NCBI GenBank assembly: GCA_045863855.1
Contig: BTVV01000069.1
Coordinates: 1 to 31,433, forward strand
Direction: 5' to 3'
Source: Planctomycetota bacterium
Lineage (GTDB): Bacteria; Planctomycetota; SZUA-567; H5-PLA8
DNA: 31,433 nucleotides
The notes under the pieces: model-generated
Seen by the model: only the letters and a program-made list of their open reading frames with translations
What the model was told of the DNA's origin: nothing
Database searches by the model: none
Shown here: positions 8,273 through 11,620 of the stretch, piece after piece
How the letters are laid out: each line of letters begins with the position of its first letter
Numbering within the stretch: position 1 is the first letter of the stretch
Made by a program: the position numbers and the translations under genes

Positions 8273-9154
8273 CTACTTGCCGGTGTTTAGCGTGGGCGTT
8301 TCCGCGCGCCGCGGATGCGTCGAGAAAAAGCGCCACATCCGCTCGTTCACACCCGCGACGTGCGCCCACAGATGCCCCCAGCGTTCCACCTCAAGGTATT
8401 CGACCGGATGCCCGGCCTTCTGGTACGCGTCCCGCGTGCGCCGGCCCTCGTCCACCTTGACGAGCCCATCCTGCGCACCGTGGACGATCAGCACGCCGTA
8501 CTTCGAGACCGGCGTCAGGTTTTTGAAATCCACAGTACCCAAGCCGCCGCTGTGCGTGGCGATGGCCGCGATCTTCTCGCCGCGCAGCGCGCCGAGCAGG
8601 TGGCAGAAGTACGCGCCGTTCGACATGCCCGTCAGAAACACGCGGTCTTTGTCCACCGCGTACTCCGTGGTGAGCTTCGCGTACAGTGCGTCGAAGAACG
8701 CCAGGTCGTCCTTTGCCAGGGCCTCCAGCAGCGGCCACGCGCGGAGCCGGCCGTTGGGGTAAACCAGGATGAACCCGCGTTGCGCAGCCGCGACATCCAG
8801 GAGCGTATAGATCGGCATTAGGTCTTTGCTGTCGCCTAATCCATGGAAGGCAAAGATCAGGGGAACGGGCTTACTCAGGTCCACCGAGGCAGGCACCACC
8901 AGCCGGTATTCGCGCTCGATCCCATTTACCATCAGCGCTTCGTTCGGCAAGATGCCCGTCTTCGGCCGCGCTTTGACGGCACTGGCGGGATACGCCGGCG
9001 TGGAGGGTGCGGGAGGCGATGTCACGGCGCTTTCCATGCCGCTCCCGCCCGCACAACCCGCACACAGCGCCACCAGGATTCCGATCGTCAGATCCCTTGC
9101 GGTCGTACTGTGGTTTTGGGTTCGGGCCGTGGGCTGCTCAGATTCTGGCATCAC
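8273..9154 (-). CDS. LpqC/PHB-depolymerase-like alpha/beta hydrolase (esterase), likely a lipoprotein
   Basis: Nucleophile elbow TGMSNGA (GxSxG), oxyanion FHGLG, HGAQD and GHLW (Asp/His). N-terminal hydrophobic stretch ending in LCAG-C. Start is GTG 9154 or ATG 9151. Confidence 0.85.
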   Translation of the reverse strand: MMPESEQPTARTQNHSTTARDLTIGILVALCAGCAGGSGMESAVTSPPAPSTPAYPASAVKARPKTGILPNEALMVNGIEREYRLVVPASVDLSKPVPLIFAFHGLGDSKDLMPIYTLLDVAAAQRGFILVYPNGRLRAWPLLEALAKDDLAFFDALYAKLTTEYAVDKDRVFLTGMSNGAYFCHLLGALRGEKIAAIATHSGGLGTVDFKNLTPVSKYGVLIVHGAQDGLVKVDEGRRTRDAYQKAGHPVEYLEVERWGHLWAHVAGVNERMWRFFSTHPRRAETPTLNTGK

Positions 9155-9180
9155 GATTGCACCTTACGCACCAAGAGGTT

Positions 9181-9207
9181 CAAAATCGCCCGGAGCGCGC
9201 GATTTTG
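9181..9207. promoter_or_regulatory. Perfect 9-bp inverted repeat in the divergent esterase/selenoprotein intergenic region (candidate operator)
   Basis: CAAAATCGC (9181-9189), 9-nt spacer, GCGATTTTG (9199-9207). Confidence 0.4.
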
Positions 9208-9275
9208 TGGTTTCCGCCCACGCTCCTTGCTGGATTGCTCCACAGCACGGCGGAATTCAGAACGGAGGTTTCATC

Positions 9276-9980
9276 ATGCGCCTGTTCTCCCCGGTTCTTG
9301 GGTGCCTTATGGCAATTGCCATGCCGCTCGCCGCCGCCGAACCGGAGAACGTAGAGCAACTCAAGACCGCAGCCCTAGCCAAGGAAAAGGAAGGCCACTG
9401 GAAGCAGGTAGCATGGGAAGCCGACGCTGCGGCGGCGGTTCGGAAATCCCAAGCCAGCGGGAAACCTCTTTTTGTGGTGCTCATCGTGGGGCACTTGGCG
9501 CGCCCTAACGCCAGCGAATGCTGACTGGGTGGGCGCATGCTCCGCGGGCGGTCGCTCTCGGACATTCGTATCATGCAGCGCCTGAATGCCGATTTCGTTC
9601 CGCTGGAACTGAACCTCACCGATTGCAGCTTTCCGGCCGAGTTGCCGGGCTTGGCGAACTGGAAGCGCGCCTTCGAGTCCAACGCACGCCACAAGTTTGG
9701 CTTTGCCACGGCCGTAGTGCTCGACCCCAAGGGCCTTGAGCCGCTAGGCACGTCCGGCAGCGGCTATTTAGCGGAATGGGAAAGCGCCACGAATTATCAC
9801 GCCGACAAGTTCTTCGCCTTCCTCAACGCCAGCTACGCGCGCGCCTGCCGTCTGGCGGCTTTGCAGGCCGAAACCGAGATGGGTCATCTGGAGCGGAACC
9901 TGAAGCTCGCCGCGCTACGCAGCGAGGTACTGCAGCAGATCCGCGCCGTGAATGTTGGATCGCCGAACGTTTCGCGTTGA
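9276..9980 (+). CDS. Putative exported selenoprotein (234 aa, Sec83 at TGA 9522-9524), thioredoxin-like fold with a SelN-like C-U motif
   Basis: GGAGG (9264-9268) precedes ATG 9276. Signal peptide MRLFSPVLGCLMAIAMPLAAA. Trx-like N-terminus WEADAAAAVRKSQASGKPLFVVL. The in-frame TGA directly follows a Cys codon, and the frame continues LGGRMLRGRSLSD..LNADFVPLEL to 9980. A SECIS-like hairpin lies downstream of the TGA. Confidence 0.8.
9537..9565 (+). promoter_or_regulatory. Candidate bacterial SECIS element
   Basis: AUG-C-UCCG-C-GGGC-[GGUC]-GCUC-U-CGGA-CAU: the AUG/CAU, UCCG/CGGA and GGGC/GCUC stems close an apical loop starting with G (9550-9553), 25 nt after the UGA. Confidence 0.65.
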
Positions 9981-9991
9981 ACGCATAGGGC

Positions 9992-10006
9992 TGGCATCGA
10001 CCTTGC
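9992..10006 (+). promoter_or_regulatory. Sigma-54 (-24/-12) promoter upstream of the Thr/Ser/Gly-rich secreted protein
   Basis: TGGCAT-CGACC-TTGC matches TGGCAC-N5-TTGC with one mismatch and the exact GG-N10-GC spacing. It lies about 100 nt upstream of ATG 10109. Confidence 0.7.
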
Positions 10007-10108
10007 GCTGCTCACCCGGTGTGCGGAGCGGGTGGGGGAACTTGCCTCATGCCAACCGTCTGACGGGGCGAACGAACCCTTCTCCGGAAGGGACTTGGAG
10101 GAATAACC

Positions 10109-11620
10109 ATGAAGTGCGCGCGTACCGTTAGGAGCCTGCCGAAGCTGTGGGGAATTCCGGCGTTCCTGGTCTGCGTAGGTCTGGCCTGGCCGTTGGCCGC
10201 GGAAGATGAGCAGGCGCTACTTGAAAGCGCCGAGGAGGCCCCGGCCGAAGAAATGCCGCCCATCGAGCCCGTTCAGGTGGTGACCTCGGCCGTACGAACC
10301 GTTGTCGAAAACGAGGACGGCAGTAAAACCGTGACCTCCACCGCCACGCACGCCAATACGGCGACAGGAGCGGAACGCAGCGTCGAGAACACGGTGACGG
10401 TCACGCCGTCCGAATCGGGTTCCACGTATACGCGCGACACCATCTACGCCGGCGCGAATGGAGGAGCGGCCAGCAGCCACACCGACTGCAACGTGACCCG
10501 CAACGGAGACGGTTCGGGATCGTTCAGTTCTTCCACCAGCGGCAGCGGCACGCGCGCCAACGGCCAACCCGCAAGCTGGAACACCGAACGCAGCGGCACT
10601 TGGGCGCCCAACAGCCAAGGCGGCAAGGACGCTTCCATGACCGCCACCACCACGATGGGCAGCGGCTTCAGCACTACCGTCAACCGCACCGCTCAGTCCT
10701 TTCAGGTCGACGAGGACACCAAGGGCTTCCACGCCGAATCCGACCGGACCAACAGCCTCGGCGGCAGCACCCAGCGCGTGACCGACGGCAGTGTGACCAA
10801 AACCGAAACCGGCCGTGAATGGGAGAGCACGACGACCGGCACGCATACCAACCGCATCGGCGAGACGGCCAGCTGGTCCGCCGAACGCGACGGCTCGGTG
10901 ACCAAGAACGAGGACGGTTCGCTGACGCTCTCCAAGACGCAGACGGTCACCAACGCCAAGGGCGAGACGGTGAACATCGAAAAGTCCGGCACGCTGGTGA
11001 AGACCGAGACCGGACACGCCTGGGAAGGCACGGGCAGCGCCACGTACACCGGCGCCGAAGGGCAGCAGAAATCCTGGACGGGCACGGGCAGCGGCAGCAC
11101 CACACGCAACGGCGATGGAACGGGCTCGGCACAATCCACCCGGACCGTCACCAACGACCAGGGCCAGTCGCGCTCGGTCGATCGGACGGGAACGTCGGCG
11201 CCCGCGGAAAGCGGCGCGGGCCGCACCTGGGAAGGTACGAAGTCGGTATCTCGGTCGGGCGCTGAAAAAGCTCCGCCGGCCGAAACCTCGGCCACGGCGC
11301 GGTCCACTCAGGCCGCGTCCACCGACCGTGCGGGGGGCCGCGAAAGCTGGGCCGCGCGCCGCGAGGCGGCCGCTTCCAGCCCCGCGACGGGCATCGCCAA
11401 CGATTCGGCGCGCCGCGCAGAAGCCACCCAGAGGCTGGACGCCTGGAAAGCTCAGCGCGGCGATGCCACCGCGGCTGGATCTGGAGCCGGAAGCTTGCGT
11501 GAACGGCTCCAGGGCGCCGGGCAAAACGCCGACGGTTTGCGCGAACGCGCTGAACGGGACCGCGTGGAGCGCGAACGGGCCGAGCGCCAACGCACCCCGC
11601 AACGCCGCGGTCGCCGCTGA
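10109..11620 (+). CDS. Secreted Thr/Ser/Gly-rich beta-repeat hypothetical protein
   Basis: RBS GGAGGA. Signal peptide (…LVCVGLAWPLAA-E). Repeats KTETG.W.. / T[KR]N.DG[ST]..TVTN..G with a 67-aa period. Arg/Glu-rich helical tail. Confidence 0.8.
   Translation: MKCARTVRSLPKLWGIPAFLVCVGLAWPLAAEDEQALLESAEEAPAEEMPPIEPVQVVTSAVRTVVENEDGSKTVTSTATHANTATGAERSVENTVTVTPSESGSTYTRDTIYAGANGGAASSHTDCNVTRNGDGSGSFSSSTSGSGTRANGQPASWNTERSGTWAPNSQGGKDASMTATTTMGSGFSTTVNRTAQSFQVDEDTKGFHAESDRTNSLGGSTQRVTDGSVTKTETGREWESTTTGTHTNRIGETASWSAERDGSVTKNEDGSLTLSKTQTVTNAKGETVNIEKSGTLVKTETGHAWEGTGSATYTGAEGQQKSWTGTGSGSTTRNGDGTGSAQSTRTVTNDQGQSRSVDRTGTSAPAESGAGRTWEGTKSVSRSGAEKAPPAETSATARSTQAASTDRAGGRESWAARREAAASSPATGIANDSARRAEATQRLDAWKAQRGDATAAGSGAGSLRERLQGAGQNADGLRERAERDRVERERAERQRTPQRRGRR

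Follow-up and report, generated by a model that had tools for sequence, protein, structure and literature searches.

A hidden selenoprotein gene with a vicinal Cys-Sec thioredoxin site from an uncatalogued Planctomycetota family

Results

A single frame interrupted by an in-frame TGA

The window, i.e. the whole stretch of 31,433 nucleotides analysed here (Planctomycetota bacterium, GCA_045863855.1, contig BTVV01000069.1), belongs to a genome of 6.9 Mb that is 94% complete (G000). On its forward strand a frame runs from ATG 9276 through 82 codons, the last of which is TGC (9519-9521), to TGA 9522-9524 and continues for 151 open codons to the stop TGA 9978-9980 (Table 1). Read-through gives a protein of 234 aa with E-C-U-L-G-G-R-M-L-R around the internal TGA. 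An initial annotation, made from the letters of the sequence, had proposed one frame broken by this TGA alone and a good ribosome binding site for its upstream part; sequence and read-through agree with the former, and the GGAGGT that precedes ATG 9276 bears out the latter. It had also placed the downstream ATG 9537 in a stem, and the extended stem does include this ATG; its remark that ATG 9537 lacks a clear Shine-Dalgarno sequence needs a small correction, as a weak GGTG does precede it. An ATG is present at this position in 2/11 family loci, and a 90%-identical relative has ATA. Differences from this relative were biased towards synonymous changes on both sides of the TGA (N-terminal half: 9 synonymous and 5 non-synonymous in 61 codons; C-terminal half: 30 and 15 in 151 codons). 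No paralogs of the gene were found in G000.

Table 1. Features of the selenoprotein gene (positions in the window)
Feature	Position	Strand	Basis
Shine-Dalgarno sequence GGAGGT	9264..9269	+	Sequence; several relatives likewise have GGAGG 5' of the start
Selenoprotein gene (234 aa and stop codon)	9276..9980	+	Frame, relatives, synonymous-biased differences
Predicted Sec-pathway signal peptide, aa 1-21, ending A-A-A	9276..9338	+	Hydropathy 2.66, heuristic
Thioredoxin_7/DsbH-type thioredoxin domain, about aa 39-197	9390..9866	+	AlphaFold2, structure matches, Pfam
Cys82, adjacent to Sec and proposed to act as the resolving residue	9519..9521	+	Ends of database N-halves; role by analogy with SEPN1
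In-frame TGA, Sec83, start of active-site helix	9522..9524	+	Aligns with the attacking Cys or Sec of relatives with CxxC or UxxC
Candidate bacterial SECIS, 25 nt after UGA	9541..9562	+	Core stem 9546-9549/9554-9557; loop GGUC 9550-9553
C-terminal extra helix, about aa 204-225	9885..9950	+	Predicted to form a hairpin with the last helix of the thioredoxin domain; some homologs lack it

The internal TGA is also present in other sequencing data. A DNA-run contig (X5, 8273-9801) and an RNA-run contig (X11, 9398-9601), each from another study, span the codon unchanged, and the two differences in the RNA-run contig are at third codon positions. RNA-run contigs over the gene are evidence of its presence and say nothing on transcription or its level. 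In one study an RNA-run contig starts at 9137, with 8785 to 9135 uncovered there and the DNA runs continuing, which hints very weakly that a transcript may begin there; a promoter and terminator scan of 9050-10200 found none.

The gene is flanked by a divergent esterase-like gene and by an exported low-complexity protein without a Pfam match, the latter lying downstream on the same strand (10109-11620, +) and being an exported-looking, Thr/Ser/Gly-rich protein of 503 aa with repeated strand-like units that is kept in the congener. No neighbours of the gene were conserved beyond the genus.

The TGA codon and the selenocysteine machinery

The initial annotation had tied its reading to the presence of selA, selB, selC and selD, and selA, selB, selD and tRNA-Sec were all found in G000, each above its family cut-off; selD itself carries an in-frame TGA. 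A second tRNA-SeC (C125:17730-17828) was called by ARAGORN and not by Rfam, and is probably spurious because Rfam was negative and the sequence looks coding. TGA is an ordinary stop in G000, where it terminates 373/1034 long coding-like frames, and these frames, together with the lack of Trp at the TGA column, rule out genome-wide reassignment of the codon.

Within the class, 7/62 genomes match the window protein. The codon at the Sec column is again TGA in G006, G004, G009 (two loci), G018 and G014, and it is TGC in G008. A profile built from 30 family members gave matches in 145/401 genomes of the phylum (E<=1e-8), which is not a family count because weak matches can be other thioredoxin families. 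Among the 30 best homologous loci the codon was TGA in 28 and Cys in 2. We surveyed selA and tRNA-Sec in 36 chosen genomes, made up of 33 with the TGA form, 2 with the Cys form and 1 congener without a clear copy. selA was present in 34 of them, including all 33 that carry the TGA, and was absent only from the two Cys-form genomes (91% and 94% complete); tRNA-Sec was present in 31, the three misses besides the Cys-form genomes being in genomes that are 66-87% complete. In one genus a Sec ortholog (L030) and a Cys ortholog (L027) have the same flanking neighbours.

As had been claimed, ORF callers split the gene, and protein databases store halves that break at the TGA codon: the best 150 of 159 database matches comprised 23 N-halves, 95 C-halves, 29 proteins spanning the column and 3 others, with at least three of these 150 being spurious repeat matches. 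Cys is the last residue in 21/23 of the N-halves. In alignment A2 the Sec column is occupied in 25 natural rows, by Cys in 21, Gly in 2, Ser in 1, Ala in 1 and Trp in none. Neither Trp at this column nor halves that occur as independent genes, both of which the initial annotation had named as grounds for abandoning its claim, were seen. That the TGA is a real stop, with the locus being a pseudogene, containing a sequencing error or comprising two genes, is scarcely credible: the databases do keep the halves as separate proteins and there is the weak GGTG 5' of ATG 9537, but the TGA is conserved across the phylum, interchanges with Cys, tracks selA and is unchanged in other sequencing runs, the downstream ATG is not conserved, and a stop would cut what is predicted to be a single domain at its active site. 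TGA 9522-9524 is almost certainly decoded as Sec, making this one gene and not two.

A candidate SECIS hairpin

The hairpin that follows the TGA folds at -10.5 kcal/mol and lies within all four constraints of a bacterial SECIS model (a loop of 3-9 nt with G in the first two loop positions, a stem of 4-16 bp, a spacing of 16-37 nt and an MFE <= -7.5; PMC13188914). Stability by itself is weak evidence for a SECIS: compared with shuffles, z was about 0 in windows of 51-121 nt, and values of -1.5 and -2.1 were reached in windows selected post hoc. No compensatory pairs above shuffles were found in the stem among 19 rows, which had been picked for hairpin likeness.

Support for the putative SECIS rests on synonymous-site conservation, which we assessed in 9 loci of the family; these were selected for the similarity of their proteins, and two near-copies were excluded. 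The Leu codon at +11 was CTC in 9/9 loci versus a background of 49/132, and codon +9 was NGT in 8/9 versus 19/218, the ninth locus being the window, in which GU lies one base later. The nominal p values of this codon bias are overstated because the loci are kin and not independent. The GU was lost in both Cys-form loci, and the GGUC/GU register was not common to all of the more distant groups.

A codon-plus-hairpin scan of G000 missed both this gene and selD and is therefore no census of selenoproteins. Two further selenoprotein candidates were noted in G000, with family names assigned by eye, one MsrA-like (C24:44629-45495, -) and one small and HMA/MerP-like with UxxC (C3:14865-15206, +); both have hydrophobic N-termini and 8-bp SECIS-like hairpins. 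No Sec-type formate dehydrogenase was found above cut-off in G000.

Probable export, predicted fold and active site of the protein

The protein had been described as exported with a signal peptide. What can be upheld is a hydrophobic N-terminus ending in A-x-A, which by a heuristic resembles a cleavable signal peptide, and a hydrophobic N-terminus is likewise seen by hydropathy in 20/23 database N-halves. We judge export of the protein to be probable.

The thioredoxin fold that had been proposed was borne out by structure prediction. AlphaFold2, run with a 136-row alignment, gave a model with pLDDT 95.4 and pTM 0.92 in which Cys82-Sec83 lies just before helix 84-91, and all of the best matches among solved structures were thioredoxin folds: 3f9u, which is DsbD-gamma-like (Z 12.6, rmsd 2.5, 122 aligned), AGR3 (Z 11.3), DsbH (2ju5, 10.7), 3ira (10.5) and UAS (9.8). 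A profile match to 3ira was also obtained (E 3e-5); a single-protein sequence search of the PDB gave 0 matches. Pfam Thioredoxin_7 matched below cut-off in 15/30 family members, and the Atlas cluster that contains a natural homolog has 230 members, no name, and Thioredoxin_7/DsbH clusters as neighbours. The predicted fold is that of the Thioredoxin_7 (PF13899) and Thioredox_DsbH (PF03190) proteins (3f9u, 2ju5 DsbH, 3ira, AGR2/3 and UAS; Z 9.5-12.6), but unlike them the window protein lacks CxxC and scores below the Pfam cut-offs.

The Cys82-Sec83 motif of the initial annotation was supported by the frame and by family comparison. When the protein is aligned with relatives of the VPG-U-x-x-C and C-H-W-C types, Sec83 corresponds to the attacking residue and Gly86 takes the position of the resolving Cys; neither a CxxC nor a UxxC motif occurs in the window protein, which reads U-L-G-G. 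Among 35 TGA loci of the wider group, the residue at +3 after Sec was Gly in 21 and Cys in none, and a vicinal Cys preceded the Sec in 20 and was missing from 15. Cys-Cys was found in 6/27 spanning database homologs (register set manually). In the alignment, the Pro before the strand that follows the active-site helix in DsbH, VPGU and SelN-like proteins is replaced by Gly-Phe in the window family; the lack of this Pro, the cis-Pro of the substrate loop, is unusual for a disulfide oxidoreductase.

Proposed function and alternatives

Taken as a whole, the explanation that we favour, and consider moderately more probable than all others together, is that the protein is a Sec-containing, likely exported periplasmic thiol-disulfide reductase; for the reductase chemistry itself, which is drawn by analogy, we would put the chances slightly above even. 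In this scheme SelB would bind the GGUC hairpin and Sec would be inserted, after which the signal peptide would be cleaved behind Ala21. The Sec83 selenolate would then attack a disulfide or an oxidised thiol of an envelope protein, and Cys82, a candidate resolver because Gly86 replaces the usual resolving Cys, would resolve the intermediate to give a vicinal selenenylsulfide, as proposed for C427-U428 of SEPN1. Re-reduction may be carried out by the single DsbD-type transporter of G000 (DsbD_TM above cut-off, with a C-terminal CxxC domain). Through residue 428, the SEPN1 variant C427S/U428C stays attached to its substrate; SEPN1 has been called a reductase (PMC7474598; for the latter also PMC8148124). 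Given that a vicinal Cys is missing from 15/35 TGA loci and that Cys-Cys occurs in 6/27 spanning homologs, resolution by Cys82 cannot be general, and the TGA loci and Cys homologs that lack the vicinal Cys need an outside reductant. The few homologs in which Gly, Ser or Ala takes the place of Sec count against the proposal, and as the gene neighbours are not conserved beyond the genus they provide no link to DsbD or to a substrate.

A selenoprotein that is no catalyst of disulfide exchange, in which Cys-Sec is a ligand of a soft metal or a metalloid or a sensor of the redox state, or in which the fold is a binding module of the AGR/UAS type, appears rather unlikely, but is the alternative that we take most seriously. 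The missing resolving Cys at +3 and the missing Pro in the substrate loop fit such a role, as do AGR3 and UAS among the best structure matches, and a 2026 review proposes Sec as a possible metal ligand in some selenoprotein families. It is countered by the retention of Sec or Cys at the attacking position throughout a wide family, and by SEPN1, which has the same CU motif and traps substrates via Sec (PMC7474598).

The protein could also be an exported oxidase, an isomerase or a scavenger of peroxide or sulfenic acid and not a DsbD-fed reductase, which we regard as improbable. To our knowledge, the direction in which a thioredoxin-fold enzyme works cannot be read from its sequence, which speaks for this alternative along with the missing genomic link to DsbD. 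Selenenylsulfide couples, on the other hand, are usually strongly reducing, and this speaks against it, as does the description of SEPN1 as a reductase (PMC8148124, PMC7474598).

Catalogued and uncatalogued relatives

The window protein had no NCBIfam match at E<=1, and it and 17 relatives had no match above cut-off in NCBIfam (20.0) or Pfam. Two catalogued selenoprotein groups come close to the window protein. The VPGUxxT selenoproteins (NF041382/NF041383, OS_HP5), which were above cut-off in 24/251 Planctomycetota genomes, have the same domain type, the same Sec register and a similar SECIS-loop position, but differ in their UxxC motif, which supplies a resolving Cys, in an N-P-V loop and in a second domain fused to the first; a Cys homolog of the window family scored 22 bits against the VPGUxxT cut-off of 275. 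The Trx7/PDZ selenoprotein (NF041199), also found in Planctomycetota, has a Thioredoxin_7-type N-terminal domain with Sec but differs in its CxxUxxC-type motif and 390-aa model, against which the score was 11 bits (cut-off 300).

Further unnamed TGA-containing thioredoxin groups were observed (L038-L056, L014), many of them without a vicinal Cys. These groups include lipoprotein-like C-U-[IV]-G proteins, G-x-T-U proteins with a large C-terminal domain and x-U-x-G-[HY] proteins with helical tails. Two-Sec members occur among L113-L118, L088, L092, L093, L098, L099, L101, L105 and L106, the forms being Trx7/PDZ with U-x-x-U and VPGU whose fused domain carries another Sec. A thesis reportedly dealt with a SelN ortholog of Candidatus Poribacteria, and bacterial SelN-like genes may therefore not be wholly new.

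The table of 119 prokaryotic families published in 2026 lists one Sec each for the Trx7/PDZ and VPGU families and, in its Table 1, no SelN-like or CU thioredoxin family (PMC13188914). In the main text of PMC13326102, PMC12013277 and PMC13745706 nothing relevant on SelN or Planctomycetota was found. The literature search, which covered few subscription papers and also took in related work (PMC7539508, PMC7016017, PMC3473315), returned no description of the window family or of a bacterial SELENON. Table S9 of PMC4807772 gives, for a planctomycete, one hypothetical and two candidates that are split and named 'thiol-disulfide isomerase-like thioredoxin'; these could be relatives of the window family.

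Relation to selenoprotein N

The initial annotation had called the protein SelN-like. This is true of its active-site segment, which resembles that of SelN, and its thioredoxin domain is likely a remote homolog; membership of the family is very improbable. The window protein likely works like the CU domain of SelN. SELENON carries an SCUG motif (PMC12839072), where the window protein by contrast reads E-C-U-L, and has its vicinal Cys-Sec (CU) in a thioredoxin-like domain (PMC12839072, PMC8148124). Our comparison with animal SELENON is indirect, through bacterial SelN-like sequences.

These sequences form a separate Planctomycetota family with a SELENON-type layout (L017, L018, L020, L023, L123, L126, L128, L129; proteins P0154-P0264), consisting of a long N-terminal domain and then a thioredoxin domain with D-D-E-S-C-U-G-S-G, with a strong SECIS hairpin; in P0246 the two domains are in swapped order. 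A motif search gave 10 matches in 9/301 genomes (control pattern: 1), 4 of which are real genes with D-D-[EQ]-S-C-U-[GP]-S-G after a long N-terminal domain, and a protein search found the family in 12/401 genomes and in 112 database proteins. The database proteins are stored as N-halves of about 280 aa; 105/111 of those checked end in S-C, and one is named 'selenoprotein N' by JGI. No Pfam or NCBIfam model exists for the family. The first Atlas match of a natural Cys-form SelN-like protein was a Selenoprotein N cluster (Eukaryota 98%, score 0.91), which we regard as a moderately strong lead.

When the window family was aligned to the SelN-like thioredoxin domain, Sec fell on Sec (97.9%), and the profile score was 113, compared with 78-80 against the VPGU, Trx7/PDZ and DsbH families. 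With size-matched profiles the SelN-like scores were 92-110 versus 52-79 for controls, and with 14 motif/SECIS columns masked they were 53-78 (97/111 rows maskable) versus 54-69 for DsbH and 58-66 for VPGU. As the excess similarity was mostly gone after masking, the extra resemblance lies mostly in the motif/SECIS segment. Four other unnamed planctomycete groups outscored the SelN-like family against the window family (126-232 vs 113). All trees were built under LG+G4. Two free trees gave a firm SelN-like clade without the window protein (support 100/99 in one of them); in an AU test, grouping the window family with the SelN-like rows was not rejected (p 0.56). Monophyly of all xU groups was seen in 0% of 200 bootstrap trees and was not rejected by the AU test (p 0.90 and 0.54).

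The window protein shares with SELENON and the bacterial SelN-like proteins a thioredoxin-like domain, the Cys-Sec pair, followed by Gly at +3 and a basic residue at +4, and an exported or luminal location (predicted for the window protein), and with several bacterial SelN-like genes the same SECIS position and 3' arm. Unlike them, it has no N-terminal domain of ~250 aa (only 82 residues precede the Sec, the score against a profile of SelN-like N-halves was -0.9 bits, and this domain was not found in G000), lacks both the Y-P-V-D loop and the acidic D-D-E-S stretch in front of the motif, and falls in a separate clade in the free trees. Unlike SELENON it has no evidence of a type II membrane anchor or of an EF-hand, for which the general Pfam search gave no match at E<=1. 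The common register C-U-x-x-G-[RK]-x-L-R-x-x-x-L, the size-matched scores and the AU test would suit a true but shortened ortholog of selenoprotein N; nevertheless we judge this very unlikely, since the SELENON-type layout is held by a separate bacterial family whose clade excludes the window protein, the N-terminal domain is absent, the masked scores overlap those of the controls and four other planctomycete groups score higher. In the L052/L054 and GCT-U groups, the C-terminal domains matched the SelN-like N-terminal domain weakly (35% and 3%) and are not claimed as its homologs.

Discussion

The gene described here almost certainly encodes a selenoprotein that annotation has hidden; its Planctomycetota family is uncatalogued, and the vicinal Cys-Sec at its thioredoxin site is unusual. 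As neither NCBIfam 20.0 nor the 119-family catalogue includes this family, and most of its members are stored as halves, the selenoproteomes of Planctomycetota are undercounted.

A broader and speculative idea, which we put forward as a possibility with the chances clearly against it, is that the gene is the single-domain form of a so far undescribed superfamily of xU thioredoxin selenoproteins, exported from the cell, that radiated in Planctomycetota, and that eukaryotic SELENON arose from one of its branches. If so, the segment after Sec in SELENON would be a fossil of a peptide constrained by the bacterial SECIS, and the SELENON coding-region hairpin (SRE), which is said to resemble a bacterial SECIS (PMC12936836), would be a remnant of it; the small soluble proteins of the family would also make the Cys-Sec chemistry of SELENON testable. 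Probable protist homologs were observed (P0059, P0072, P0140, P0144 and P0265): P0059 (MMETSP) and P0072, which is fused to a kinase-like domain, are Cys forms of the window family, and P0265 is a SelN-like protist protein that ends at the Sec codon. These suggest that more than one branch was transferred to eukaryotes.

SELENON, which is a myopathy gene in humans, is a known case of a thioredoxin active site that has a vicinal Cys-Sec and lacks a resolving Cys. The function of Sec in SELENON is described as enigmatic (PMC12936836), and in 2020 SELENON/SEPN1 was without a solved structure (PMC7474598). A soluble bacterial relative of 213 aa that has natural Cys-Cys forms would be an easy model for SELENON chemistry, and the full-length bacterial SelN-like genes would provide a still closer one.
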